Virus record (IMG/VR): IMGVR_UViG_3300009130_000015
DNA: 64,000 nt
Strand: one strand, 5' to 3'
From: a virus
The number at the start of each line of letters is the position of its first letter. Position 1 is the stretch's first letter. The notes under the pieces are model-generated. The model saw only the letters and a program-made list of their open reading frames with translations. It did not search any database and had not been told where the DNA came from. Position numbers and translations under genes: made by a program. Shown here one piece after another: positions 13,947 through 55,200 of this stretch.

Positions 13947-14022
13947 TTAAAAAGTCTTCCCAGGTTAATGTTGATTGAGTCATCCACTTTTTGTAGAGGT
14001 TGATGTAGTATTGTAATCCCAT
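13915..14022 (-). CDS. Possible micro-protein (35 aa)
   Basis: Hand translation MGLQYYINLYKKWMTQSTLTWEDFLNEYKEIRARL. Overlaps the next gene by 32 nt. Confidence 0.35.
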   Translation of the reverse strand: MGLQYYINLYKKWMTQSTLTWEDFLNEYKEIRARL

Positions 14023-14118
14023 AGTAGTTAGATTAAAAAAGGTCCTAAAAATACAAGAACATCAAGCCCTACTGTTATAAGTAGAACTTGTATCTTAGTG
14101 ATTTTAGTGATTTAGTGA

Positions 14119-14283
14119 TAAAATATAGGCTACCAACTCCTATTGTTGCTCGATATCTTAGCAGATCTGACGTAAGTTAATTACTCTTACTGGACCAACA
14201 CTCATGGGGTTGGTGGTTACCGTTCAGCCGGTTCACGCTTGTACAACTTGGTTTGAGATGTGTTGTACAACACCTATATTTTA
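14119..14283 (-). ncRNA. Candidate multibranch structured non-coding RNA
   Basis: An 11-bp perfect inverted repeat (TAAAATATAGG/CCTATATTTTA) closes a region with internal stems of 9, 3, 6, 5 and 4 bp. No useful ORF. Strand inferred from the flanking genes. Confidence 0.55.
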
Positions 14284-14299
14284 ATTCGGAAACTCCGAT

Positions 14300-14470
14300 T
14301 TAAGGCATTGGTGCAAGGATTAATAAATCCTCATACATCTCTTCATTGTTATGGAGATCACATGAGTCTACCATCAGGTTACCAACAAACATCTCAAGAT
14401 GATGAGTGTGTGTCTTAAAGATAACTGGTATGTCAGCAGGTAATGGTTTGTATTTTCTTAAACTTAGCAT
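14300..14470 (-). CDS. Small hypothetical protein (56 aa)
   Basis: Hand translation MLSLRKYKPLPADIPVIFKTHTHHLEMFVGNLMVDSCDLHNNEEMYEDLLILAPMP, with an A-rich leader. Confidence 0.5.
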   Translation of the reverse strand: MLSLRKYKPLPADIPVIFKTHTHHLEMFVGNLMVDSCDLHNNEEMYEDLLILAPMP

Positions 14471-14700
14471 GATAATAGGTTTTACAAGGCAATAACGATG
14501 ATGTTTTATGCCGGTTGGTTTAGTGTGTATATGGTGTACTTTTCTCTTTTACTATAGCTCATGGATTTATGAGTGATATGGCGAAATGATGGAATTGAGA
14601 GTTATGTGGGCTGTCCAACACCTTCTACCTCACACAGTTATGACACCAAAAGCATGTATGCTTCGGCTTAGACTGGAGGCTTCTGCTTAGATAGGCTGTT

Positions 14701-14727
14701 TTAAAAAGAGGAGACCCGAAGGTCTCC
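14701..14727 (-). terminator. Intrinsic terminator with a UUCG tetraloop
   Basis: Minus strand reads GGAGACC-TTCG-GGTCTCC-TCTTTTT, just after the stop of ORF 14734-14988. Confidence 0.85.
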
Positions 14728-14733
14728 GTCTGA

Positions 14734-14988
14734 TTAAGCTGTTAGCCACTTGAACGTTCTCATGACACCTGTTTCAGGGTCAACTGTCTGTGATTCTCTG
14801 ATACCGAATGCCGATATGTCGAATTCCTTCGGACATGGCCCAACCTCTGCTTGCTCTGCAAGTTCGATGTAGTACCAATCCTTCTGGATTGACTTGAAAC
14901 CACCAACCTCAACAACTGAGTTTTTAGCGATTGTTGTGATGAATGTTCCTTGTTCTGTTTTTTCTGATTTCGTGATTGCGAATTCCAT
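14734..14988 (-). CDS. First leftward early gene, hypothetical
   Basis: 84-aa ORF with a TCACTAA leader and its own terminator. Confidence 0.75.
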   Translation of the reverse strand: MEFAITKSEKTEQGTFITTIAKNSVVEVGGFKSIQKDWYYIELAEQAEVGPCPKEFDISAFGIRESQTVDPETGVMRTFKWLTA

Positions 14989-15092
14989 GATACTTTTGTT
15001 TGATTAGTGAATGGGGGTACACCGTGTTCCCGCCAATGCATAGGGGGAGGTTTGATAAAGGACTCCAACACTGAATACCCCGCACAAAAAAT

Positions 15093-15593
15093 ATGAAAAA
15101 AAATATATACACAAGTTTGGTGTACAAGAAAGTTTACCATATCTTTGGGATGTACAAAACGTACAATATGGGGACAGAATCGAACTACATCATGAAGGCA
15201 CTATACCGTAAGGACAAGTTTATCAAGGACTTACCCTCTTCTGATATGTATCGAAGACTTCTCTATAATGACGACTACACCAACGAGGAAATCATACTCT
15301 TTGAGGCAATACTACAACTCAAGAGGATACATGGGAACGGTTTCACATACGCATTCTCTCTCTTCAATCGATTGACACGTTTATCCAGAAGGAAGTTCGA
15401 AAGAGCCAGACAAGGACTCGTGGATCGATTAATCATAGAGGTAGAAGATGGTGGTTTCAAACAGCCGAACAAATACACTGTTAGAACCGCTACAATATGT
15501 GCCAACCTGCACAGGGTATATGATCTCCGAAAACTGGATAAGAAGGATGTGGCTTTTGTTTCTCACGATATCAGAGACTGGCTAACTACCTGA
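15093..15593 (+). CDS. Winged helix-turn-helix DNA-binding protein (replication-initiator or regulator-like)
   Basis: The segment FSLFNRLTRLSRRKFERARQGLVDRLIIEVEDGGFKQPNKYTV fits an HTH plus wing. The true start is probably downstream (15150, 15168 or 15192). Confidence 0.65.
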   Translation: MKKNIYTSLVYKKVYHIFGMYKTYNMGTESNYIMKALYRKDKFIKDLPSSDMYRRLLYNDDYTNEEIILFEAILQLKRIHGNGFTYAFSLFNRLTRLSRRKFERARQGLVDRLIIEVEDGGFKQPNKYTVRTATICANLHRVYDLRKLDKKDVAFVSHDIRDWLTT

Positions 15594-15695
15594 TAATCCA
15601 CATGGTGTACAAAACGTACAACACGTTGTACAAAATGTACAGCATAGTTAATATATATTTTACTTACATCTAACTATAATGTACAAAACGTACAA
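15151..15695 (+). repeat. Dispersed direct repeats TGTACAAAACGTACAA (three exact copies, one variant)
   Basis: Exact copies at 15151-15166, 15606-15621 and 15680-15695. Variant TGTACAAAATGTACA at 15627-15641. Half-site TGTACAA at 15121. Confidence 0.85.
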
Positions 15696-16146
15696 CATGG
15701 AGAAGGAAAGAGGAATAATGATGTTAAAAGAAACACTTGGATATTACACACCTGAACTTGAAGAGTTCCATATGGGATTCGAATACGAGATGTATATCCC
15801 TGGAACAAACTTCCTGTATAGCAAAGAAGTGTTCCGCCCACTACTTGTGAATGGTGTAGTTAACACATTTGACAGAGGTCTTCAGAAAGGGTGGTTGAGG
15901 GTGAAGTGTTTCGATAAGGATGATGTGACTGATCTCGGATACCCACTTGATGAATGGTTTCCAGGTAAGGGGAAATATGGTGGTACTTACATGATACACG
16001 TTACACCATCTATGCGAATTACAGTGTCCATCAAGGATATCATGAGAAATGGTTCGGGTGACTTCAAGAAGTTGGATATCATCTACCGACTTAAACTGAA
16101 GAATAAGTCAGAGCTAAAAAAACTTTTAAAACAATTGGGAATATGA
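15679..16146 (+). CDS. Hypothetical protein
   Basis: Contains YYTPELEEFHMGFEYE and RVKCFDKDDVTDLG. The first codons overlap the repeat, so the true start is probably 15697 or later. Confidence 0.7.
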   Translation: MYKTYNMEKERGIMMLKETLGYYTPELEEFHMGFEYEMYIPGTNFLYSKEVFRPLLVNGVVNTFDRGLQKGWLRVKCFDKDDVTDLGYPLDEWFPGKGKYGGTYMIHVTPSMRITVSIKDIMRNGSGDFKKLDIIYRLKLKNKSELKKLLKQLGI

Positions 16147-16577
16147 ATAACAAAGATTTTGAAGAGTTAGGATTTAGTAATATAGCTGGGTGGAGTGCGC
16201 CTGGCATGCAAACTATCAACGAGTATAAGAAGGATAACTTCAAACTGACTCACTCAATGCCAGATGACTGTGTATTGATTTCCGTAGACGAACGCACTCA
16301 CCATATTGGTGTCTTTAAATCGAAGATTAGTTTAGAGACTAAATTGTCTGACATGCAGTATTTAGTTAGACCGAGTAATCAACTACATGTTGCGATTGAA
16401 CTTAAACCAGATCAAAGATTCCTTGCGGGAGACCTTTGGAGATACAAGTTCACCCACCATGGTAAGTTGAAGTTGGTAAGCAATATAAATGTGGAGTACT
16501 ATTGCGACACACTTGAAGAAGCACAAAAATCATACGATCCATTGGAGATTGTATCAGTTCAAATTAAAAAGATATGA
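16143..16577 (+). CDS. Hypothetical protein
   Basis: 144 aa, ATGA-coupled at both ends. Confidence 0.65.
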   Translation: MNNKDFEELGFSNIAGWSAPGMQTINEYKKDNFKLTHSMPDDCVLISVDERTHHIGVFKSKISLETKLSDMQYLVRPSNQLHVAIELKPDQRFLAGDLWRYKFTHHGKLKLVSNINVEYYCDTLEEAQKSYDPLEIVSVQIKKI

Positions 16578-17149
16578 TAAAGAAGATAACAGCAGTAATC
16601 GTAAAGGGTGTAAGAATTCCCATGGAGGAGTTTAACCCTGCGCTCCTTCTTGTAGCCGAGGGAGTAGAAGTGACATATAAACCGGAAGTGAATAATTTCA
16701 AATTCACGGTTTTGGATACGAGTAAGAAGCCAACTGTATTGGACATACTTGTAAAGGGACTTGAAAAATTTCCCAAAAATGATAATGAATACGATTGGAA
16801 TTTAGCAGCAGTAGGTAACATGAACAGAATACAACTTATAAAAGTAGTGGTAGATATACGCGATGATAAAGATTTATCTACACCATTGAAGATTAGAAAA
16901 CTATCGGAGTATAAATACAATGCACACGAACACGCAAGTGAAGAGGTAGATATCCCATTTCTTGAGACTATCGCACTGGATGCAATCAAAGACTTGAAGA
17001 TGGCAGTTGTTTCTTGTAAGATCGAAGGTTGCTCGGGTACTTATTACCCAAATCACCCAGCATATAAAGAAGGTGCAAACAACACCATGCAGCAGATATA
17101 CCTGAAGTCAATTCGTACGTGGATCCAAATTGGCCGACGAGAAAGTTGA
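16574..17149 (+). CDS. Hypothetical protein; its last ~50 codons may belong to the adjacent Tad1-like gene
   Basis: 191-aa ORF overlapping the Tad1-like frame. See findings. Confidence 0.55.
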   Translation: MIKKITAVIVKGVRIPMEEFNPALLLVAEGVEVTYKPEVNNFKFTVLDTSKKPTVLDILVKGLEKFPKNDNEYDWNLAAVGNMNRIQLIKVVVDIRDDKDLSTPLKIRKLSEYKYNAHEHASEEVDIPFLETIALDAIKDLKMAVVSCKIEGCSGTYYPNHPAYKEGANNTMQQIYLKSIRTWIQIGRRES

Positions 17150-17339
17150 GAAAAGAGAAGGTACTCTTCATGAGCATTTATTATCAGCAATGATCGCTGA
17201 TTTGAAGTTCAAACATCAATTGGTTCCATCGAAAGAACGAGCAGTAGCAATCACTAAACTCGAGGAAGCAAGAATGTGTATGCAAGAAAGACAAATTAAC
17301 AGAATTGAAGCGGGTACGCTTGGAACTTACAAAAAGTAA
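17130..17339 (+). CDS. tad1-like: Tad1-like (Acb2/Tad1 hairpin-type) immune-signal sponge, C-terminal part
   Basis: GTLHEHLL...PSKERAVAITKLEEARMCMQERQINRIEAGTLGTYKK matches the recalled Tad1 C-terminal pattern (G..x..LL...S[RK]E.A.A[LI]T..EEA.M.M..R...RIE...LGT..K). TTG start. The in-frame Tad1-like SQFVRGSK lies upstream of that start. Confidence 0.75.
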   Translation: MADEKVEKREGTLHEHLLSAMIADLKFKHQLVPSKERAVAITKLEEARMCMQERQINRIEAGTLGTYKK

Positions 17340-17347
17340 AAAGAATT

Positions 17348-18367
17348 ATGGAAGCAGTAAAATTAACACCTTACGTAGGTGTAAAGTCGATCAAAGCATC
17401 GGCACCAATGACAAAGAAAGAGTATTGTGAAATTCGCGGATGGGTTGTACCAGCTAACGAGGATTCAAATGAAATGGTAGTGTTGGTTGAATACCCACTT
17501 GAACCAGGAAAGATTGCTAATGTCCCAGGCTATGATGGATACGTTTCCATGTCTCCACTATCTGTGTTCGAGAAAGCATATGCTGAAGTTACTGGTGATA
17601 CAGAGGAGCCTGCATTATCTGAGATTATCGAAAGAAACTACAATGGTAAAGCCATCACTGATGGATACCACACTCGTGGGGAATTGTATGATTTCAGAAA
17701 GATGTACAATTGTGCGTTATTCAACGAATGGGCAGCTCAAGGGAAATACCAAGTTCACAAGTCTAAGAAACACCACGATGGTGAGGATTGTTTCGGTGGT
17801 GGATGGTTCATCGTAGTTGCAGTATTACCAACAGGACAGATCAGTAACCACTACAAGTTAGAGGATTGGAATCTTTTCAATGTGCCAACTGCCGAGAAAG
17901 CCATGTTCGAATTTGATGGACACACTCCAGAAGATGTATTAGCAAGACTTGAGTACTTAACTAAATCTAAACCTGTGAAATTGGATCCAAAAGAAAACAG
18001 TGCTCCACAAGAAGCACAACCAGTTGCGAAATCTTTAGGAAACACTGACGCAAATGGTGCGAAGAAGAATGTTAAAGATATCAAGTTCTGGGGTAATGGT
18101 GACACATTCAAGTTGATCTCAAAAGCATCTTCTGCAGCAGAAGGATGGATGAAGTCTACTAAAGCAATGGAAATCCCATTTGTAGGATGTGTAATTCAAG
18201 TAACCACTCAACAGGGAGATAATGTTTCTGAAGCTGTCACTTTTGTACCAGGGGTTAAAATCGTAGAGAAGATTGAGAATGAAATTGTGGTAGAGAGAAA
18301 GATAATATCAATACATGATAGAATTGAAGACATCCACAAGAAATTGGAAAAAGAGTATTTAGGTTAA
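17348..18367 (+). CDS. Three-domain fusion protein, candidate anti-defence: Y.G.K/SP..FE..Y domain, WDGH-type domain and EGWMKSTKAM domain
   Basis: aa 6-80: YVGVKSIKA.PMT...RGW...VEY...GY.S.SP..VFEKAY. aa 101-204: ITDGYHT..ELY...GWF...LPTGQIS.HY...FDGHT. aa 227-322: GNGDTFKLISKASS..EGWMKSTKAMEIP.VGCVIQVTTQQ. The domains are separated by charged or Pro-containing linkers. Confidence 0.7.
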   Translation: MEAVKLTPYVGVKSIKASAPMTKKEYCEIRGWVVPANEDSNEMVVLVEYPLEPGKIANVPGYDGYVSMSPLSVFEKAYAEVTGDTEEPALSEIIERNYNGKAITDGYHTRGELYDFRKMYNCALFNEWAAQGKYQVHKSKKHHDGEDCFGGGWFIVVAVLPTGQISNHYKLEDWNLFNVPTAEKAMFEFDGHTPEDVLARLEYLTKSKPVKLDPKENSAPQEAQPVAKSLGNTDANGAKKNVKDIKFWGNGDTFKLISKASSAAEGWMKSTKAMEIPFVGCVIQVTTQQGDNVSEAVTFVPGVKIVEKIENEIVVERKIISIHDRIEDIHKKLEKEYLG

Positions 18368-18376
18368 TAAATAATG

Positions 18377-18404
18377 GAGGAGTTCTAAAATGAGCTCCTC
18401 TTTA
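18377..18404 (+). terminator. Intrinsic terminator closing the 15.1-18.4 kb unit
   Basis: GAGGAGTTC-TAAAAT-GAGCTCCTC-TTTT. Confidence 0.75.
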
Positions 18405-18494
18405 CTTTCATGTCATGATAAACAAAGTAGCAATCATATCACTTGTAGTAATCGTTATTATTCGTATTTTAACGAACTGAAAAAATTCTAACCA

Positions 18495-18674
18495 ATGGGT
18501 AGCCCACACGAGAAGTATCTTAATGCATTCCAAGGATTGAAGAAAAAGAAGGTTAATAAACCAGGGTTCAAACCGATGACTTTTTCAGAGATTCAAGAAT
18601 CCATGATTAATGCAGAAAGAAAGGGCCAAAGAAGGGCCAAAGGAACATGTACATTCTTCAATGACCTGTTTTAA
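18495..18674 (+). CDS. Small basic protein (59 aa)
   Basis: Hand translation MGSPHEKYLNAFQGLKKKKVNKPGFKPMTFSEIQESMINAERKGQRRAKGTCTFFNDLF. Confidence 0.55.
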   Translation: MGSPHEKYLNAFQGLKKKKVNKPGFKPMTFSEIQESMINAERKGQRRAKGTCTFFNDLF

Positions 18675-18924
18675 TATCTTCTATTAAATGTTTGAGTAAC
18701 TTATTCTCACCCTTTAGACGTTCATTCTCCCTGATGTACTCAAACTTAAACTCTGTGAAATCTTTCACATGTTTCGCCTGATCTTCTTTCAGCTTTATCA
18801 TTTGAACTTCCATGTTCTCTTCACGATCATCTATCCCATCCACTTTGTAGTATAATCCACCTGCGGTAAAGATTAATCCTATCATAACTGTGATGTTACT
18901 CTTAAATATTTCTCCGACATTCAT
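18658..18924 (-). CDS. Lone antisense membrane-anchored coiled-coil protein
   Basis: Transmembrane-like segment ITVMIGLIFTAGGLYY followed by a charged helical tail. Confidence 0.6.
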   Translation of the reverse strand: MNVGEIFKSNITVMIGLIFTAGGLYYKVDGIDDREENMEVQMIKLKEDQAKHVKDFTEFKFEYIRENERLKGENKLLKHLIEDIKTGH

Positions 18925-19012
18925 AACGATTCACAAGATACCAAAAAAGCTCACCCTCTCAAAGCCTGGGTTCATATATACGACATACTCGTAATTTTTA
19001 TATCTACATTGC

Positions 19013-19044
19013 TTTGGTGTATATATAAATTATACATACCTTTG
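19013..19044 (+). promoter_or_regulatory. Bacteroidota sigma-A promoter (TTTG-N20-TACCTTTG)
   Basis: TTTG at 19013-19016 and TACCTTTG at 19037-19044 with a 20-nt spacer, matching the -33/-7 consensus. Confidence 0.75.
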
Positions 19045-19048
19045 ATGT

Positions 19049-19387
19049 ATGAAAGCATTTAATCTAAAGTCATTATTGGTCAAAGGTGGTCAAGGTGACA
19101 TCGAAGTATTAGTAGAAGTAGATGGTAAATTGTTAGCAACAACAGGTGTTGAAACTGTTGATGGTAAGAGAATCATCAAGACAAAAGAAATCGAAGTTGT
19201 TGAAGAAGAAGTTGTTGAGGAAGTGGAAGAAACTCCAGCTCCAACTCCGGCTCCTGAAGCTCCAGTTGATGAAGATAAAACTGAAACTGTAGTTGAAGGT
19301 GATGATACAACTGAAACTGGAACTGAAACTGGAGACGGTGAGGGAGAAGGTCTTCCATCAACATCTCCTGCAGCAGGTGAAGAGTAA
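19049..19387 (+). CDS. Hypothetical protein with a long acidic, Pro/Thr-rich tail
   Basis: Short beta-rich N-terminus followed by E/T/P/G low-complexity sequence. Confidence 0.7.
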   Translation: MKAFNLKSLLVKGGQGDIEVLVEVDGKLLATTGVETVDGKRIIKTKEIEVVEEEVVEEVEETPAPTPAPEAPVDEDKTETVVEGDDTTETGTETGDGEGEGLPSTSPAAGEE

Positions 19388-19408
19388 ACGAATTGGGGAA
19401 GATATTTC

Positions 19409-19657
19409 ATGGCGAGGACACCAAGAAAAATAAAGAAGGCTGCTAAATCAGTAAGAGTTATTTACGATATTTCAGCATTGCCAATGGGATCAGATGTAGA
19501 TCAAGTATTCTACGTTTACCATAAAACTGGGGTTTTATTCTATGATTCCAAGAGAGGGGAAGCCCCTAAATTTCAGTATAACAATAAAAGAACCAGAATT
19601 CGTGACACCAGTAAAGTAATGGGTGCTTACGATTTCGGCCGTAAACAAAGACTATGA
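19409..19657 (+). CDS. Hypothetical basic protein
   Basis: 82 aa, ATGA-coupled to the next gene. Confidence 0.6.
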   Translation: MARTPRKIKKAAKSVRVIYDISALPMGSDVDQVFYVYHKTGVLFYDSKRGEAPKFQYNNKRTRIRDTSKVMGAYDFGRKQRL

Positions 19658-19869
19658 GTTCATTTATTCCACAATTCCCACAGTATAGACAAGCTATCCT
19701 GGAGTATGAAAACGATAAAGGTGTAATTGCAACACGAGTTACATGTAGCACCAACTTGAATAATACTATAATCACTAAGCATTACAGAGTTAGTGAGGAT
19801 TCAGATGAAGCATTGGCTGTGGTGGACGTGGAGTTTAATAACCATGTAAAATCATTACAAGATGAGTGA
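19654..19869 (+). CDS. Hypothetical protein
   Basis: 71 aa, coupled on both sides. Confidence 0.6.
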   Translation: MSSFIPQFPQYRQAILEYENDKGVIATRVTCSTNLNNTIITKHYRVSEDSDEALAVVDVEFNNHVKSLQDE

Positions 19870-20278
19870 GGAAAAACAAGAAGAAAAAGAAGACTTGGGG
19901 AAGTCGTTATTTCCGAAATACAAAGTTAGTGTTGATGAAAATCCACTTGAAAGTAAGATTAACATAACTTTTAAATCCCACGATGGGAAGGGAAATGAAT
20001 TCGAAGATACGGTTGAACACGATGGTGATCAAAGTACAATGACGAAGGAAATAGGAGCTAAGATGGCTAAAGAATATGGAATCAAAGCCAAAGCTTTTTT
20101 CGACTCATTGTTACCAATTAGGTTTGAAGTTATCACTGGGAACACACAGTTTGAATTTGAAGATGCTATTGCAACATATGTTGAGAATGGCTGGGAAGTA
20201 CAGGGTGGAATGAGTATTTCACCTGAAGGATTGTTTTGTATATTAATGTTTAAAGAGAATAAAAAAGATGGGAAGTAG
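19862..20278 (+). CDS. Hypothetical protein with a C-terminal DUF1737-like domain
   Basis: C-terminal EFEDAIATYVENGWEVQGGMSIS...ILMFK fits the recalled DUF1737 pattern. Confidence 0.5.
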   Translation: MSEEKQEEKEDLGKSLFPKYKVSVDENPLESKINITFKSHDGKGNEFEDTVEHDGDQSTMTKEIGAKMAKEYGIKAKAFFDSLLPIRFEVITGNTQFEFEDAIATYVENGWEVQGGMSISPEGLFCILMFKENKKDGK

Positions 20279-20609
20279 TGCATTACCGTTTATACCGTAC
20301 GCAGGATTAATAGCGTTAGCGGTTCCAGAAAGTATGTATCCAGACACAGAAGCTCCAATGACGAAGGAAGCTTGGATGGAAGAATTAGAGAAAAAAGCAC
20401 CAGAGATTGTAACAGGTGAATTAGTTGTTGCAGGAATCGGAAGTGGTGTTAGTTTTGTTAAAGTTGGAGATGTAGTATCTCTACAGTCACACGTTAGAGT
20501 TCAGAGAATTGAAATCGATGGTGATAAACCAGACAATCCAAAATTAGTATGGATTGTTAGAGAGTCTGAAATCTTAGTCAAGCATGACAAGGCTAAAGAT
20601 GGAGAATAG
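20268..20609 (+). CDS. GroES-like co-chaperonin
   Basis: VVAGIGSGVSFVKVGDVVSL and WIVRESEILVK follow the GroES pattern (VvAVG.g...vkvGD.V ... i+rEsdIla). Confidence 0.65.
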   Translation: MGSSALPFIPYAGLIALAVPESMYPDTEAPMTKEAWMEELEKKAPEIVTGELVVAGIGSGVSFVKVGDVVSLQSHVRVQRIEIDGDKPDNPKLVWIVRESEILVKHDKAKDGE

Positions 20610-20714
20610 TTTTATATATGAGGGTGCTTTCTTCTGTTACGATGAGAGCTCCCTCTATATATTCAATGGGGAAATGGGAGGGCTTGTTCCCATAACTACA
20701 ATAAAACCGATAGA

Positions 20715-21095
20715 ATGAAGATCGTTAAAAAAGTAAAGGATCGGGAAGACTTGTATTTGACAGTCTTTCGTCATCTTAATACATCAGGGCAGATACGAGG
20801 TATTGATATCAAGACATACACATTAATGTGCATGGAGGCGATGGAAAATGGAAACCTACGTATATCAAAAACATTACGTGATACGTTACAGGAGAAGTTG
20901 CAAATGTCAACGCAATCTCTAACAAATTCAATAACCAGGCTTAGAGAGAACTCGGTTCTAACTGGACAACGTGGAGTATATGTTCTTAAACCTGAAGTAC
21001 TTTGGGATGGAGATGAAGAGTCTCGCAAGAAGTTCTTATCGGAAGATGGTAGTTTCGAAATATTCATTGAAACAATTATCGAGGGAAATAAATAA
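20715..21095 (+). CDS. RepL-like winged-helix DNA-binding protein
   Basis: LQMSTQSLTNSITRLRENSVLTGQRGVYVLKPEVLW: HTH plus wing ending in a P..lW motif. Confidence 0.6.
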   Translation: MKIVKKVKDREDLYLTVFRHLNTSGQIRGIDIKTYTLMCMEAMENGNLRISKTLRDTLQEKLQMSTQSLTNSITRLRENSVLTGQRGVYVLKPEVLWDGDEESRKKFLSEDGSFEIFIETIIEGNK

Positions 21096-21102
21096 AATAA
21101 CT

Positions 21103-21468
21103 ATGGAGTTGAAATTGAAGACAGATGCCCAAGACCACATTGACAAATACCTACGTGTTTGGAATGGTTTAATGGGACTAACGAAAAAGGAATTCAGTGC
21201 TGCGAAAGCTCTCATCTCACTTCACACTGAGTTGAAAAACGCTGGTATATCAGAACCTTACTTATCTGAGATGGTTTTCTCAAGTAGTAAGTTGAAGAAG
21301 ATTAAAGAGGATCTTGGTTTGAATAATAGTGCTTGGTATACGATTAAGAAATCGTTGATTGCTAAAAAGGTAATTCGTGAAAGCGAAGAAGCACTTGAGA
21401 TTAATCCAAGAATGATTCCTCAAGAAGTATTAACGTTTAAATTTGAGATTGTAGATGGATCCGAATAA
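21103..21468 (+). CDS. Winged-helix-type DNA-binding protein
   Basis: Start moved to MELKLKT. Contains IKEDLGLNNSAWYTIKKSLIAKKVI...EINPRMIP. Confidence 0.55.
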   Translation: MELKLKTDAQDHIDKYLRVWNGLMGLTKKEFSAAKALISLHTELKNAGISEPYLSEMVFSSSKLKKIKEDLGLNNSAWYTIKKSLIAKKVIRESEEALEINPRMIPQEVLTFKFEIVDGSE

Positions 21469-21739
21469 ACACACAGAACAACTCGAAAAATTGGCAGCAG
21501 AAGATCCAGAAGGATCGTTTGAAGCCAAGAAGGTTGAGGATATGAATCGCGCTGAAAGAAGGAGTCGCGGTAAGTATTACAAGGATTTATATAAAAAACA
21601 CATCAAGGCTAAACCAAGTGTTAACCTTGAGTTGGAGGGTCAGGAAGCATACGATCAACAGATGAAAATGCAAGCATGGGCTACTCGATATGGAATCCTG
21701 ATGAAGAAATTAAGTGAACTTGGAGTTAAGATAAAATGA
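21455..21739 (+). CDS. Hypothetical protein
   Basis: 94 aa containing MNRAERR, coupled to its neighbours. Confidence 0.6.
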   Translation: MDPNKHTEQLEKLAAEDPEGSFEAKKVEDMNRAERRSRGKYYKDLYKKHIKAKPSVNLELEGQEAYDQQMKMQAWATRYGILMKKLSELGVKIK

Positions 21740-21981
21740 GTCTAAAACACGTAGTACAAGGATATTCGAATAGTGCACTCGATAGTGTAGGTAAACTCTC
21801 ATCTGTTAAGAAAAAGATAGCAGACGAGAGAATGGGAATTTGCAAGAAGTGCCCTATATTTGATTCAAGCACAAACATTTGTCAAAAGGATCAAGGGGGT
21901 TGTGGTTGCCTGATGACTAAAAAAGTTTATGCTATGGACGCATCGTGTCCCCAGAAAAAATGGAAACCAGCAAACATATAA
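21736..21981 (+). CDS. Small Cys-rich (zinc-binding) protein
   Basis: RMGICKKC...C...CGC...K......CPQKKW. Confidence 0.7.
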   Translation: MSLKHVVQGYSNSALDSVGKLSSVKKKIADERMGICKKCPIFDSSTNICQKDQGGCGCLMTKKVYAMDASCPQKKWKPANI

Positions 21982-21983
21982 CA

Positions 21984-22154
21984 ATGCAAGATTTAAAAAC
22001 AGCGTGTGAAACTAAGAATGATTTTAGAAAACTTGAAGATATCGATATTCAGATAGCACACGCTCCAGGATACGATGAATCATTTGAAGGAGAAGCAATA
22101 ACAGAAAAGACAGAATATGGGAAGAGTAGTGACAAATCTGGAATTGGCGGGTGA
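21984..22154 (+). CDS. Small hypothetical protein
   Basis: Start moved to MQDLKTAC, just after the previous stop. Confidence 0.4.
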   Translation: MQDLKTACETKNDFRKLEDIDIQIAHAPGYDESFEGEAITEKTEYGKSSDKSGIGG

Positions 22155-46279: not shown

Positions 46280-49200
46280 ATGCCAATTCACGGTGATCAA
46301 TCTTTAGGAGAATCTCAAGGTATAAACGCAGCCCAAGAAGTTAACGAATTCGAATCTGGAGTTAAGGAATCATTAGATGCTACTCCCCAGGAAGATTTCT
46401 CGGTAGACTTTGATACTAAGGAGATTACAGATGCTCAATTTAAGGAGGCTGAATCCCATGGAGTTAGAGATATAGACTTACTTGATACTTCCACTGATGT
46501 TAATCAGGAGATTGAAGCAAACCAAGAATGGTATGAATCTGCATATCGTGCGGTGGAAGGTGGTATTGCTAAAGGTACAATGACTTTCCTTGAGAATGTT
46601 GGGTACTTAGCTGACATTCCTCAATGGTTTGGATACACTAATTCTTTCGAAGAAGGGTACACTAACATGTTATCCGAATGGGCATCTGAGAAAAAGAAAG
46701 AGTACGACGAATACAATCCAATTTATGGTGATAGTGCGTGGGCACAATCAATGAGAGGTCTTCAAGGACTTGTTGATTCTACAGTTGGTTTTGCTGGTAT
46801 TGGTGCTGGTGCTGGTCAAGTTATTGGTAGAGGTACTGCATTGTTAAACTCTATGGTTAAAGCAGGTCATATTACTGAAGCTGCTATTGCTCGCATTGGT
46901 ACTGCCGCTGCAACTAACTATGCTGAATCTACAATGATGGCTGCAGAGTTACATGAGAATGTAATGAATGATGCGTTGAGAAATGGATTAGATAATGCAG
47001 AAGCGTTACGTATTGCAGACAGAGAGTCTAAAGATTTCATCAGACAGAACAAGATAAACATTGCAACTGACATGTTCACATTAAGATCTATGGCTAAAGG
47101 TCAGGGAATTCTTAGTGGGGCAATGGATAAATCGAAGCGGGAGATTCTCAAAGCCGGGGTAATGGATGCGGCAGGTGAAGCTTTTGAAGAAGTATCTGCA
47201 GGTTTCTTACAGAAAGAAAATGAAAGAGATGGTTCATTAGAGATCGGTAGTATTGTTGAAGATGATTCATCTTACATTGGTAGAGCTGCCGAATATGCAA
47301 CTTCAGAAGAAGGAATCACTGAAGGAATCATGGGTGCTATTGGAGGTCCATTCCAACACATGACAGTGAAGGCATTCAATAAAGGAATCGAAGCAGGTAA
47401 GAAGAAGTTTGGATTGATCGATCCTGTAAATGACCCAGGTGAGTTTACTGAGGAGAGACCTGAGTTTACTGAAACTCCATCTGAACCTGTTGGTAGAAAA
47501 CCATTAGATCCTGTTGAAAGATATGTTAAGATTAACGCTAACACATCTAAGGAGGAAGCGGAGAAGTATGTAACGGAAGAGGACTGGGAGAACTATAGGA
47601 AAGAAGTTCAGGAATGGGCAAGAGGTTCTATGAGTGATGCTGAATACGAGAAGTCTAAAGAAAAGCACGAGAAAGAGGTTGAGCTTTATGAGCAAAGAAA
47701 ATCTGCTCACGAACTTGAGAAGAAAAAATACGAGGAGTACGTCTACCAGAAAAAAATGGGAGGTCGTGACCAGGCTAAGAAAGACGTGGAAGAATTCTTG
47801 AAGAATGACCACGAACTTAGAAAGAAATATAACAAAGCCGTATTGGATGGTGATCAAGCTGCAATTGCAGATATTGAGAATCAAAGGTTTGAAGGATTAT
47901 TCTTGAGGTATGCCCAAAGAGGTATGACTGAAGGATTAGAGGAACAACTTAATGAGATTAGAGACAACTCTGAGTCTACTGATGAGCAACGTAAGTTTGC
48001 TGAGAAGCACCTTAAGAAAATGGATGAGTACAAAGCTCAATACATGAAGGAGTTCAACAAGCACGGTAGACAGAAGGGTGAAGAGTTATTTAGATTAAGA
48101 AGTAGAGTTGAGAGCACTAAGGAAGCTCTATCTGATATCGATAAACAAGTCGATGAGGCAGGAATGAAGCTTGCTCAGGAAATGAAAGATGTTGAAGGTA
48201 AGATGGTTAATCCACTTCAGACTGAGAGAATGTCTTTGAATTCACTTAAAGGTGCACTCGAACATATCGAGAATAAACTTTCATTAAATGATAATGCGGT
48301 TATTGAATCGGAGTTATCAAAGAAGAAAGCAGATATAGAAAAAAGAATTGCTGAGATTGATAAGGAGTTTACAACTGGTAAACTTTCTGATTCTGAAATC
48401 AAAGCACTTGATGGTTATGAAGAGTTTGAAGCTCAGTCTAAGAAGAAAGCAGATGCGTGGTTGACTTACCTTGGATACAAGAAGTCATACGATTACCAAT
48501 CTTCACCCGCTTTTGAGAAAGACTTACAGAAGAAAAACTACGAGTACTTAAATGATCAGATTGTTAATAACACATTTAACGATCAGGATGTTGCTGTTAA
48601 CATGGCAATGATTACTCATTTAAACTTGAGCAATAAGCAGAAGAAGGAAATCTTAAAAGAGTTAGATAAAGTCGCTTCCAATATTGAAAACGAAGAGATT
48701 GAAACTGCTGCCGAGTATGAAGATTTACAGAGAAGAAAGAAGCAGTATGACGCTATGTATGAGGAGGTTACTCAATCATCACTTGACGCTTTAAGTGAGG
48801 TTATTCGTCGTCAGAAGAATAAGTTCACTAAGGAAGATGAAGTAATTGAGGCTGCGAGAAGAAACTATCATTCTGCTCAACAGAAAGTTCATACAACATT
48901 AGATCCTAAGTTCCAAAATGCTAACGTTGAAAGTTTACGTCAGCAATACCAAGAGGCTACAGATAAAGCGTGGGAAGAATATCAGGCTTCTAAGAAAGCT
49001 AAAGAACAAGCAATTAAGGACAACACGCAGAGGATTCATGATCTTAAGAAACAAATGGAAGCTAACAAGCAGCAAAGAAAGCGTATTGTTAGTTTACGTA
49101 ACACTGTAGATTCAAGACTTGAGGCTAATGACAAGTTCATTGGTAACAATGCAATGGAGTTTGAAGCAGATAGATACTTAAACAAGCTGAATGAAACTTT

Positions 49201-52200
49201 AAGTAATGAAACAACTCCGCCTCCATCACCAATGTCACAACCAGAACCATCGGCTCCTACCAGAGGAATTGGTGCGGTTGTAGGTGGTACTTCTAAAAAG
49301 AAGACACCACCATCTACTGTAGTTCAAGATGTTGAAGAGAACAAAGGTGAGAATACAGTACAGCAAGTTGAATCTAAACCAAAGTCAAAAAACACAAGAG
49401 GTGTTAGAGCACCTCACCCATACATTGATAAGTTAAATCAAGCAAGACAACCTAAAGGTCAAGACGGTGTTACTCCTCCACCATTGACAGAAGCAGATGC
49501 TCCAAGAGATCAAGGTCCAGCACCAACATTTCAGGAAGCTCCATCTCCTATGTCATTCGATGGTGTTACTCCTCCAGATTATTCTGAAGCAGATAGTCCT
49601 ACACCACCTTTACCCGAGAATGCAACACCTGAGCAACTTCAGGCTGCAGCTCAAGCAATGCGTGATATGAAAGATGAAGATTCTGAAGCATTAGCTTCAT
49701 CTTTATCTCACATGTCAAGTGCTGAAGTGTCTACTAAGGGTAAAGAGTTAGGTGAGATAGTTCCTACTGATTTTGATAACTCGGACGTAATCCCTCCAGT
49801 ATCTCCAGCTTTTAATGAACATGAGAGTAGGTTAAATTCTGAATGGGAATGGTCTTTCTCATACCAATCTACATCAGATGGTATTGGCGATGAGAATGAT
49901 AGCGGTTTAGTAGATTGGCTTGAGACTACAACGGATTTAGATAAGCGAGGTTATACGGTTAGATACGAGATTGACAAAGGTGATTTGTCTTTTGATTTCA
50001 AAGGATCCAAAGCAGCTTTAACTAAATACTTAAATGGTGAGACGTTAACTGATGCTGAACTTGCTGAACTTCCAATAAGAACTGTTGTGTACAAAGCCGA
50101 TGGTACTAAACTTATCCATGGTGGAAAAGAAGTATATGGGTGGTTGAAGCGTTCAAGTTACAACTTCATTGATAACAATGGTGAGAAGGGTGAAAGCTTA
50201 CTTAAAGCTCGTAGAGATATAGTGAACATTGCAAAAGACGGAGGTTACTTTGAAAGTAAAATACGTAAAGTAGGTAGTGGTAAATTAAAGTCTGAACCAA
50301 CGAGAAGAGAAGATCCTCGTCAGTTTTTAGATAAGGTTAAGCTCTTAGTATCAGATGGTCCTACTCTTATTGACCAAGATAAATCAATAGATGATGATTT
50401 TGGATCTGTTGGTAATAGAGGTTTTGTATTCTTAAAAACAGTGGATGCAAATGGTAGACCGTTCCCACTTAAAATGAATTCAAGAAGATTGGATCCAGAT
50501 GAAGTTAAAACAATACTTAATGTTCTTGTAAACTACTCAAGAGATGATGATCATAATAGCCCTGCTATAACTGAACATGTTTCAGGTCTTACTAATGGTG
50601 AGCTTATGAGCTTGTTGGTGTACGAAGGTAAAGCTTCATTGCTAAACGAATACCCTTTAAACGCTGACTTGAAAGCAGGTACATTGACTTTTGGTAAAAA
50701 GACTATACCGTTAAGTAAGGTTGAAGAGAATGCTCAGGAGGTTTCTGAATACCTTGCAACAATGTGGAGAACTACAAACGTTAGAATGCTCAACTCTAAA
50801 ATGGATAAGACATTCGGTAAAGACTTCACTTGGTTTGGGCAGGACATATCTGTTAGTGATATGAACTACAATGATTTCTTATTCAATGACGAAGCGTTGT
50901 CAACTAATGCGTCTTTCCCTAATGGTAGATTGTTCATCAATCCTCATGTTATAACTAATAAAGCTGAAGAGTGGAATAAGGTTATGCCAAAGAAGATGTA
51001 CAATGAAAAGGATGTTGCTGTTGTTAGAAGGGAGGCCGCTAAACTTGGATACGAAGCTGAGATGGTTGGTGAGTTATATCAATTAACACACCCTACTGAA
51101 AATAAGACAATCAAGACAAAGATGGTTGTTAAATCGTTCTTAAACCAAAAAGCCAAAGAGAAGGGTATAACTTTAGACTTCTCTCAAGGGAAGGTTGATA
51201 CTAAGGAAGTTACACCTCCAATTGTAGATGAGAAATCATCTACTACGATATTCGATCAAGGTCCAGATCCATTGGATTCTGTATTTGGAGAAGAAAAACC
51301 AGACTGGAGAGATCTTGGTGGAGATCCTGATTCCTCTCAAAGCCCGGGAGTTCAAACGAACGTAAACATGGATATGTTCAGAAGTAACTCTAATAAAGCT
51401 ACTGGTAAAGATTCTGCAGATGAGTCTAATAAAGACGGAAAAACCAAGAGGGTAAGAAAAAGAAAAAAGGACGGTGGAAATAAACCTGACAATTTTGATA
51501 CTAAAGGGCCTGATGCTCCTAAGTATTCTGAAATCACAATTGCTCGTCGACAAGTTAATGTAGAGAAGGAAATAAAAACTCTTAGAAAGATGCTTCCAAA
51601 TGTTCCTGTTAATATAATCAACGGTCTTATAAATGTACCAAGAGGTGGTGTTGCTGAAGGTAAGTTCTATAATGGTGTTGTAAGTATCTCAGACATGGGT
51701 AACGAAGGTGTTGCTTTCCATGAAGGTTTCCATGCGGTACTTGATGGTTACTTGAGTTATGAAGAACGCAAGGAGTTATTTAATGAGGCGAGAAATAGAT
51801 TTGGTAAGAACGAAAGTGATTTACAAGTTGAAGAGTTATTAGCTGAAGAATTCAGAGAGTACATGTTGAGCAGAGGTGAGCTTAAAGTCCCATCTATGTT
51901 TAAGAAACTATATAACATGTTAATGGATATTGTTGATTTGTTTAGAAGTAACAAGTCCAATAAAGTATTCTCCAGAATTAGAAGAGGTAGATTTGATTAC
52001 ACTCCTAACTTCTCAAGATCGAAGCAGGTTCTTTATAGTGAATTGAACGGAGTTCCATCTCAAGCTATGGTGAGAGATGCGGTAAGTACAATTGCATATA
52101 GAGTTGTTTCTTTCTCAGGTGTTAGATCAATGGATGATACAGCAAAAGCATATGACAATTTAGAGAGTGTATTCAATGATGTATACAACTCATTGTTAGA

Positions 52201-55200
52201 TGACGCAGATAGAGCTGAAGAAGCTGGACAGGATGAGATTGTTGAAAACATTGATATCATCACACATGAAGATTTCGACAACTGGGATAAGATTGTTCAA
52301 CTTACAATGGATGAGTTGAGTGCTTATGATTTAACAGAACGTAAAGATGATACAGATGTATCAGAAGAGAACGAAGAAATCTCAGGTGAGTTAAACATCA
52401 AACCTGCTTTATTGTATTCAGGTAAAGATAATGCTTCCAATAACACTAAGTTGATGGTTGCAATGTTGAGAGAACCTGGTGCGAAATCACAGTTCTTTGG
52501 CCCAGGCTTTGAGAAACTGGCAAACTTTGCAACGTCATGGAGACTGCTTGAAGACAACCTTGCTGGTATTGTTACCACTCAATCTAAAACAGAGATGGAA
52601 GGTATGCTTGAAGCCCTTGAAGGTTTAGCTGCTAAACATCCTGAGTTCAATGAGTTGTTATCTCAACTTAAAGCTGATGAGAGTGTTGTACCTCAATACA
52701 AGAAGACTCAATTCTATAAAGCATTCTCTAAACAATCTGTTTTATACAACAATGCAATCGTTACTATTAGTGGTAAGGATTACACTTGGAAGATTGGTAA
52801 TGCAGATGGTCAGAGTCATGCTAAGTTATTGAGAGCTGAATGGAATGAGGATTTCAAGAATCAGTTTACATATGGTGACCAGGTTGTAAAGAAGAAAGCA
52901 TTAAGAAATACTTTAGATAGATTTAAGAAGTTGAGACAACATACTACGAACGATATATCTGCTAAACAGAGATTGGATCCTCGTAGTTATAGAATACTTT
53001 CGGATATCTTTTCTGATTTAGGTATGGATATCTCCCCTGAGTCTTTCAAGTTGTTTGTTTCATCACAAAAAGGTAGAACTGAACAGCAGAAATTCTATAC
53101 GGCACTTGAGAAATCTATTACTCCTACGTTGTTGAATACTCCTAAGAATCCAAGTACACCACTTGAAGCAATGCTTAATGATGGTTATAAATATGATGGT
53201 GAGAATAACTTCATTACAGATTATTCTCAATTCAATCAACTTGCTTTAAACGAAGGGTTTACAAAGAAGGAAACATTAGAGAACATGGTAATGGGACCTG
53301 ATGGAAACTTATACTGGACTAAATCTCTTAACAACAGTATTACTAAAACTGTTTCTTTATGGAAGCAAGATCCTTCTGAGATGAATGGTTTATGGCAATC
53401 TCAATACCACAAGAAGTCGAGATGGCTTAATAGATTCATGGGATCTGATTTAGATGAGAGTGTTTATTCAGAAGGTGATCTTACTAAGAAAACAAGAGAG
53501 AGGCTTGAGCAATTTAGTGTTGAGGTATTCTTATCCAATCGTGTAGATGATGGTGAAGATACTGGTACAAGCTATACTGACCTGAATAAAATCGATGCAC
53601 CCATTGATTCTATAAATAGGACTCTAAATGGTGTTAAGAATAAATCAGGATTAGGATCTGTATTCTCTCCATTAACCCTTGCAGATAAGAGTTCTTTCTA
53701 CATGTTCTCAGGAATTCCTGTAGAAAAATTTAACATATCTAAGAACGGATATGGTAATGCTACTAATGTTATGCTTGAGTATTTCTTAGCTGAAGCTGAA
53801 AGAATTGCTGTTAACGTTGATAATGATGTAAACGTTGATTACTATGATGGTGCTTCCAAAAAGATGTTCTGGTTCCCAGAGTTATCTATTGGAACCCCTC
53901 TTGCTAAGAAGTTAAATATGTATACCAAGGATGGTCGTGTTAAGCTGGATAGTAATGAAGTGATGAATGCTGTTAAAGAACACATCTCAGATTCTATCAT
54001 AAAAAGAACTGCAGAGTTCGGACAGGAGATGAGAGAAAGAGGTATCATTGTTAAAAACGACAAAGGTGTTGAGATATTTAATGGTATTGATTCTGGTATC
54101 ATGAATTATTATGAAAACAATACAGTTGTAGAAAGTAAGATGACTCCAATTGATGAATTACTTACTGATTATGTTGTTAACTCTATGATATCAAACATTG
54201 AGTTTACTATGTTATTTGCAGGTGATCCGGCATTCTATAAGGATTTATCTAAGAGAACACCATCTACAATTGCAACAGGTGATGACTTAATGCATGTAGA
54301 AGGACAACCTAAAACATTTAATGTTGCTGTAGTTGGTGATATCAGTCATGACTCCAGTTTATATAAAGATTATTTAGCTGCGTTTGAAAAAGCAGGTGTT
54401 AAAAATCCAAAGACTGTACTTAAATCTTATTTAGGTATGGACTTAGCGGATGCTCAGGCATACATTACTCCTGAGAGATTTAAGTCTCTTATGATAATGT
54501 CAGGTAAATGGGAACCAAAACACGATGCTGTATTTGAAAGATTACAAAATGGAGAGGATGTAAACCCAGAGGACCTTTTGGTTATGCAACCATTAAAAGG
54601 TCAACACCATGAGCTACGTTCAGGTATCGATCAAATAAAAGTTCCTACATACTTAAAGTATTCTCAAGCTGTACTATGGGATAGTTTAGTTAAGGGTACT
54701 AAGAATGAGAAGGTTCTTAAACAAATGAGAGAGAACGAAGTCGATGAACTTGTTTTCAAATCAGGTATCAAGGTCGGAGCAATGGATGTTTCAGATATCG
54801 AATCTGTATACAATGGTGAAGGTAGTTTCACTCCATTTACATTAACAAATGCCAACTGGAAGTTACAACAAGATTTACCAGCCAAATATGAGAAGAAAGA
54901 AAAAGCATTACTTGGATCTCAAGTTCGTAAGAACATTAAAGCAAACATTCAAGATAGAGCATTCCTTGTTGGAGGTAAAGAGATTGATGGTTCTAAGTTA
55001 GCGGAAATGATTGACGATGTTGAAGTTGAATTATCTGACTTAGGTAAGAAAGAGTTCAATAAGAAGTACGGAGTTGTAGATGGTAAGATTACAAACATCG
55101 AACCTATCTATCGTCACCTTGAGGATAAATTCAAGAAAGACAGAGTGGATAACAACGTACTTGGACAGCTTGAAGCTAAAGTTGATCTTGATTTGATTTT

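Follow-up and report, generated by a model that had tools for sequence, protein, structure and literature searches.

A truncated Tad1-family gene beside a Lockin-domain gene in a marine crAss-like phage

Tad1 (Thoeris anti-defence 1) proteins, phage sponges that assemble as homo-hexamers (trimers of dimers), bind 1''-3'/1''-2' gcADPR and inhibit Thoeris, and whose fold combines an N-terminal antiparallel sheet with two long C-terminal helices, are represented by an incomplete copy in the viral record IMGVR_UViG_3300009130_000015 from IMG/VR. The window analysed here is the whole 64,000-nucleotide stretch of that record, and the copy lies on its + strand at 17106-17339. By sequence comparison this stretch is a descendant of Tad1 and retains the last two-thirds of the gene, i.e. 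the two helices and the tail: the helices are present, the sheet is not encoded. The initial annotation had called it a Tad1-like sponge, which is right as to ancestry but not as to completeness, the beta-sheet being absent, an in-frame stop present and no credible start available; hence "sponge" should be read here as a statement of ancestry rather than of function. We hold, at about even confidence, that it is the remnant of a Tad1 gene recently cut by deletion or recombination, and that the intact Lockin-domain protein encoded next door could cover the same signal. Most likely no working hexameric sponge is made from this remnant.

The peptide encoded between the TGA at 17103-17105 and the TAA at 17337-17339 (translation of window positions 16950-17339) is SQFVRGSKLADEKVEKREGTLHEHLLSAMIADLKFKHQLVPSKERAVAITKLEEARMCMQERQINRIEAGTLGTYKK. 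It starts with S-Q-F-V-R-G-S-K-L-A-D-E-K, and ends with L-G-T-Y-K-K. In Tad1 its counterparts are the end of the last beta-strand, the loop, the two helices (alpha1 and alpha2) and the C-terminal LGT lid. Both stretches quoted in the initial annotation, as well as its M-C-M motif and LGTYKK tail, are present in the translation as written. Position 17106 is the first codon past the in-frame stop and holds no start codon, nor is there any start codon between that TGA and the FVRGSK motif. The first ATG, GTG or TTG after the TGA is the TTG at 17130, hence the call of a 69-aa open reading frame (ORF) by the ORF finder; this TTG aligns with a conserved Leu codon of the family, which reads TTG, CTG or TTA in relatives (DNA alignment with three relatives' genes). 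A profile search of the window returned no second Tad1-like locus, 17106-17339 being the only one.

Assignment to the Tad1 family, already proposed in the initial annotation, is confirmed by matches to Tad1 chains alone in the PDB and by a profile of relatives. Among 177,635 PDB sequences the stretch by itself matches only Tad1 chains (phmmer, E 3.5e-4), while a profile built from the relatives plus the window sequence finds CbTad1 at E 8e-10 and CmTad1 at 1.3e-7, with the next match at 0.04; Acb2 chains are absent from both searches at E up to 10. Positions 25-113 of the relatives' profile align with CbTad1 39-123 (89 positions, among them the strand that precedes the helices). The relatives are 33 proteins obtained from a search of 5.8 billion proteins, all of 112-120 aa and 57-72% identical, and a hidden Markov model (HMM) derived from them gives the stretch 124.5 bits (E 3e-40). 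An exhaustive profile search over 1.84 billion representatives yields 1,103 members of the family with E no higher than 1e-3. PHROG 2428 is matched at E 2.4e-13, though over its second half only (positions 68-131 of 131). In terms of family profiles the picture is divided, since the relatives' HMM and the Tad1 chains match, whereas Pfam PF24729 (the Acb2/Tad1 hairpin) stays below its gathering cut-off of 27, the 69-aa ORF reaching 20.2 bits. With the same Pfam copy the full-length relatives also reach just 18-25 bits; precomputed PF24729.3 matches cover most of the relatives and mark the window protein as "weak". A scan of IMG/VR with the family alignment gave only four distant loci, of 56-62% identity; 1,587 non-redundant Tad1 homologues have already been catalogued in that database (PMC12393519).

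Structure prediction agrees with this assignment. A model of the full-length relative P0003 (81 sequences), with a predicted local distance difference test score (pLDDT) of 95.4, shows three strands followed by two helices, and its best 20 PDB matches are all Tad1, with E from 7e-6 to 9e-3 and template-modelling (TM) scores of 0.56-0.69, followed by a cliff to E 0.35. The AlphaFold2 (AF2) model of the 69-aa ORF has two helices, at residues 12-31 and 35-61, and no strand, with pLDDT 93-95 over residues 21-50. Its best 20 Foldseek matches in the PDB are again all Tad1 hairpins, at 33-42% identity, with a weak E (0.14) because the hairpin is short, and against CbTad1 it shows 40% identity over 60 columns. 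A two-copy complex prediction of the 69-aa ORF scored 0.22 against a mark of 0.42, which gives no verdict and was not used.

What the stretch lacks is the N-terminal third. The relatives carry about 40 further N-terminal residues, which form the beta-sheet and close in the nearly invariant FVRGSK, and positions 1-35 of the family profile (HMM of the 33 relatives) find no match in any forward frame of 16500-17400. The place expected for the sheet codons is occupied instead by the last ~50 codons of the upstream ORF 16574-17149, which reads 14 codons into the Tad1 remnant before it stops. TGA serves this phage as a normal stop codon, ending 7 of 27 large ORFs and taking part in ATGA stop/start overlaps at 16143 and 16574; recoding of the TGA was ruled out by this usage and by a read-through peptide unlike Tad1. 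The FVRGSK codons, in turn, are intact and yet lie 5' of any start, as is characteristic of a gene cut not long ago.

To see which functional residues are retained, the window residues were mapped onto CbTad1 (the numbering of the structure paper equals the chain index minus 1, checked on eight named residues), with residue roles taken from Li et al. (bioRxiv 10.1101/2023.11.15.567273). The results are given in Table 1. Concerning the trinucleotide site, the Lys found in place of R90 also occurs in 6 of the 33 relatives. The pocket position N92 is occupied by Thr, Ser or Gly in close relatives and by Arg in the window, a residue outside the six commonest at this position among 150 family representatives. 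The C-terminal lid of CbTad1 comprises residues 116-122. The N-terminal contacts Q8 and L13 of CbTad1, which touch the guanine of cyclic GMP-AMP (cGAMP) (bioRxiv 10.1101/2023.11.15.567273), have no counterpart in the window.

A further change concerns the hexamer interface, formed in CmTad1 by M102, W103 and K106, hexamerisation being a prerequisite for binding of the cyclic trinucleotide cA3 (bioRxiv 10.1101/2023.11.15.567273). The corresponding motif M-W-x-x-K reads M-C-M-Q-E in the window and is thus not preserved, whereas the Trp is present in all 33 close relatives. The family alignment therefore upholds the initial annotation in that a Cys replaces a near-invariant Trp; its further suggestion of a divergent ligand range fares less well, since the substitution is real but the Trp is not a pocket residue and the Cys is not unique. 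As this Trp lies at the hexamer interface and it is the hexamer that is needed for trinucleotide binding, its change to Cys would affect assembly and trinucleotide binding rather than pocket specificity.

Table 1. Features in and around the Tad1-homologous stretch (window coordinates; residue equivalences refer to CbTad1 unless stated).
Feature	Coordinates	Strand	Remarks
Tad1-homologous open stretch	17106..17339	+	77 codons + TAA; HMM positions 36-115, 124.5 bits
In-frame TGA stop	17103..17105	+	two codons 5' of FVRGSK; separates Tad1 frame from upstream sequence
F-V-R-G-S-K codons	17112..17129	+	nearly invariant in 33 close relatives (K to R in 2); intact here
Mechanical ORF, 69 aa, TTG start	17130..17339	+	20-nt overlap with end of upstream ORF
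Phe = F82 (gcADPR/cGAMP pocket)	17208..17210	+	kept
K-E-R = R90-E91-N92	17232..17240	+	R90 to Lys, N92 to Arg
Thr = T97 (trinucleotide site, hexamer contact)	17253..17255	+	kept
TGT Cys at family Trp (CbTad1 W105 / CmTad1 W103, hexamer interface)	17277..17279	+	
Two Arg = R109 + R113 (pocket)	17289..17303	+	invariant in 33 close relatives
L-G-T of C-terminal lid (L119-G-T)	17319..17327	+	kept
Upstream ORF, 191 aa	16574..17149	+	different frame from Tad1 stretch; ends at TGA 17147-17149
WDGH + Lockin gene, 339 aa	17348..18367	+	8 nt 3' of Tad1 stop; PF25311, PDB 9p8l
Terminator-like hairpin, 10-pair	18376..18401	+	directly 3' of Lockin gene; consensus scan only

The broken arrangement was also looked for in other data sets. 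Over the site, the Logan contigs of four runs in a single marine/seawater study show neither differences nor gaps (two of these runs are possibly the source of the window), a contig in ENA carries the same allele, and Joint Genome Institute (JGI) contigs from two other metagenomes have the same arrangement, one of them being 100% identical over 1,799 bp. The other, from 3300013116, shows 11 differences, which are confined to 16673-16703 in the upstream ORF and leave the Tad1 stretch unaffected. These fall in 31 bases (codons 34-44), are mostly non-synonymous and lie 14-44 bases from the contig end, and may reflect a hypervariable patch or, alternatively, an artefact of the contig end. Since the same allele is found across data sets, a one-off assembly error is unlikely.

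The events that we favour would be as follows. A recent deletion or recombination would have removed the 5' third of the Tad1 gene and fused what was left of it, out of frame, to an upstream ORF with which it has nothing in common. The retained part would still resemble a working hairpin because the time since the event has been too short for decay. The remnant and its neighbours belong to one rightward gene block and are therefore probably co-transcribed, and protection against TIR/Thoeris signals would come more plausibly from the intact Lockin-domain protein 8 nt downstream. Besides the truncation itself, the unusual substitutions (Trp to Cys, and T/S/G to Arg), the redundancy with the neighbouring Lockin domain and the kind of short forms seen in the family speak for this account. 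Several observations weigh against it. The retained 75 residues score 135.0 bits with a C-terminal HMM, as compared to 143.6 +/- 5.4 (minimum 124.8) for relatives scored leave-one-out, and of the 27 positions that do not vary among close relatives 26 are kept, so that no decay is visible. Cys at the Trp position is found in 6 of 150 representatives of the wider family, all of them full length. The broken arrangement is the sole allele in every data set that holds this phage, and the 20 nt shared with the last part of the upstream ORF would permit translational coupling at the TTG. Finally, no intact gene turned up in a closer relative, and the deletion is thus deduced without an observed "before" state.

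Some of these observations fit a working short form of Tad1, an alternative that we regard as rather doubtful. In that case the 69-aa ORF would be translated from the TTG at 17130 by coupling to the stop at 17147-17149, and the hairpin would self-assemble in the manner of Acb2 and sequester glycocyclic ADP-ribose (gcADPR) or cyclic nucleotides. The equivalents of F82, T97, R109, R113 and L119-G-T are all kept, the retained part scores inside the range of intact relatives, the allele is fixed across all samples, and the hairpin is modelled confidently over residues 21-50; moreover, the hairpins of Acb2 and Tad1 form one Pfam domain, PF24729, and the ORF adjoins another anti-Thoeris gene. Yet its start is merely a conserved Leu codon, the FVRGSK codons would be intact while untranslated, the entire beta-sheet is gone together with any counterpart of Q8 and L13, the hexamer-interface Trp is replaced by Cys and the N92 position by Arg, and the Tad1 family offers no robust natural short forms. 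Concerning this last point, a few short members (49-99 aa) do occur among the best 150 representatives, and the ones followed up are singletons whose contigs measure 554-1,783 bp, apart from one that shares a cluster with a 112-aa protein; a robust precedent for a working hairpin-only Tad1 was not found among these 150. In our estimate it is unlikely that the 69-aa product, made by coupled re-initiation at the TTG, functions without a sheet as a minimal Tad1, still able to assemble and to sequester signals of the TIR or cGAS type. If it were so, the beta-sheet would be dispensable, the protein would have an architecture naturally intermediate between those of Tad1 and Acb2, and the short form would define the minimal functional unit of Tad1; it might act together with the neighbouring Lockin fusion.

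A third explanation, which we consider improbable, supposes that a +1 frame change near 17106-17111, by mutation or programmed slippage, splits a longer gene, so that the sheet is encoded in the frame of ORF 16574-17149, either from the ATG at 17000 or fused to the whole ORF, and the hairpin in the next frame; the product would be a Tad1-type protein of 112 or ~254 aa, or two chains that assemble. The upstream frame is indeed open through the exact location of the sheet, and a +1 skip near 17108 (TCAA taken as one step) joins the ATG at 17000 to the hairpin in a 112-aa protein, which is the family length and in which some N-terminal residues align (G-T-x-Y, P-x-Y and L-K, by MAFFT). Family members, besides, commonly have N-terminal extensions, or insertions ahead of the last strand. 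However, the N-terminal similarity is non-significant in all four tests. A six-frame search with the HMM gives no N-terminal match. With an N-terminal sub-HMM, the score of the read-through N-terminus is equalled or beaten by 232 of 1000 shuffles; pairwise local alignment against 130 family N-termini gives a slightly raised z of ~1.7, with 16-20 of 300 shuffles as good and z ~1.1-1.3 for a control frame; and the gain from read-through with the whole profile is 2.6-3.7 bits, a value reached by 18-24% of shuffles. No slippery or stop-stimulated motif was found in the sequence at the frame-change site, and the frame break is identical in all data sets. A model with a 1-nt deletion was rejected, the upstream part then falling in a frame with two stops. 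As for the 191-aa upstream ORF itself, a search of a large protein collection found it alone, with no relatives, and it shows no similarity to any of the 150 family representatives, many of which have N-terminal extensions. Its Atlas model is poor (pLDDT 0.49), and with no homologues found its role as a shared fusion partner is unsupported.

That the stretch is a generic helical hairpin which resembles Tad1 by chance or convergence is barely credible: the PF24729 score under the gathering value and the weak Foldseek E of the short model would fit it, but the profile match to CbTad1 over 89 positions, the exclusively Tad1 matches in the PDB, the identity to CbTad1 in the 69-aa model and the Tad1 fold of relatives at 57-72% identity rule it out.

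Most longer forms in the wider family retain the sheet, with an N-terminal extension or an insertion between the third strand and FVRG, and since these insertions are located exactly at the DGKGI/FVRG junction, the cut point of the window coincides with a recurrent remodelling site in the Tad1 family. Variable insertions of ~20-90 residues between the third strand (..DGKGI) and FVRG were observed in P0045, P0047, P0055, P0057, P0061, P0063, P0066 and P0085, and N-terminal extensions of 50-130 residues in P0037, P0039 and P0128. Two further members are possible natural domain swaps: P0105 (197 aa) has a different N-terminal region and matches the profile at positions 52-115 only, and in P0127 (189 aa) an unrelated stretch of ~55 aa runs straight into ..QFVRGDK.

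The initial annotation placed the window in a crAss-like phage, and the major capsid protein bears this out, being ~43% identical over 98% of its length to those of crAss-like phages that infect Bacteroides, Flavobacterium and Cellulophaga. The window also has matches to PHROG families of terminase, portal and head proteins, and a 3,989-aa ORF at 46280-58249 was taken as the giant virion RNA polymerase ORF of such phages. The gene directly downstream of the Tad1 stretch encodes a 339-aa protein composed of phrog_872 at residues 5-95, WDGH (PF25311, E 1.4e-33) at residues 102-202 and Lockin (9p8l, E 1.1e-18) at residues 228-303. Lockin is a sponge for 3'cADPR and an inhibitor of both type I and type II Thoeris (bioRxiv 10.1101/2025.07.12.664507). 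Because this adjoining gene carries an anti-Thoeris domain, nucleotide-signalling immunity in the host, as put forward by the initial annotation, is plausible. A consensus scan found no terminator-like site on the + strand that would separate the Tad1 stretch from the upstream ORF or from the Lockin gene. Within the latter gene there is a weaker 5-pair stem on the + strand (17771-17783), and terminator-like hairpins are enriched in 15000-19000 (8 versus 1.9 +/- 1.6 in shuffles).

No match to Tad1-like or WDGH/Lockin sequences was found in relatives with an 82% identical terminase (L009-L012, and G001, which is 80% complete), these being fragments and uninformative on the ancestral state, and megablast of 14000-22000 against phage records gave no match. 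A search for tRNA genes found none. Further along the window, a 126-aa ORF at 20715-21095 (+) matches Pfam RepL, a Firmicute plasmid replication protein (PF05732), at 24.1 bits against a cut-off of 20.3 (E 2.9e-5).

Tad1 is well studied and many homologues have been catalogued, so that one more homologue is of little news. To our knowledge, the present case is a truncated member of a known family in a phage group not previously pointed out for Tad1, a literature search on Tad1 in crAss-like phages having returned nothing relevant. Its interest lies in a Tad1-type gene standing beside a Lockin-domain gene in an accessory region of a marine crAss-like phage, which implies that the presumed Bacteroidota host population uses TIR/Thoeris-type signalling. 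If the favoured reading holds, it would be a clean case of a counter-defence gene shortly after its truncation, with a possible replacement beside it, and would illustrate turnover in anti-defence islands. It is also a warning for annotation, as a 69-aa ORF with a weak PF24729 match in public collections should not be taken for a complete sponge.

With respect to known systems, the stretch is homologous to Tad1 (CbTad1, 7UAV/7UAW/8SMD/8KBE-H; CmTad1, 8KBB-D) from the last-strand motif through both helices to the LGT lid, and differs from it in having neither the N-terminal sheet nor a true start, in the in-frame stop, and in the changes of the hexamer Trp to Cys, R90 to Lys and N92 to Arg. The closest isolate homologues are the 114-aa gp072 proteins of Cellulophaga phages phi17:2 and phi4:1, with 61% identity over the retained 75 residues. 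These too belong to marine phages of Flavobacteriia and have the FVRGS(K/R) motif, the Trp-helix region and the GTYKK tail in common with the window, but they are complete, with beta-sheet and Trp, and reside in ~145-kb phages classed as Lightbulbvirus in their record, which are not crAss-like. The phi17:2 gp072 gene (NC_021798.1, 85135-85479) is annotated as "hypothetical protein" and comes from a cultured Bacteroidota phage-host pair. More distant isolate homologues of the Tad1 stretch occur in large Bacillus phages. Acb2 (anti-CBASS 2; T4 Vs.4, PDB 7UQ2) is a small sponge made of helices alone, with a hairpin at its core that Pfam places together with that of Tad1 (PF24729), and provides a precedent for a hexameric sponge without a sheet; the sole structural match of the 69-aa model to it, 7UQ2, is weak, at rank 43 and 6.9 A rmsd (root-mean-square deviation), and the stretch 17106-17339 is not an Acb2. 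Lockin (9p8l), finally, is directed at the signal class of Tad1 (3'cADPR) and stands in the gene block of the remnant, but has an unrelated, mostly beta fold.

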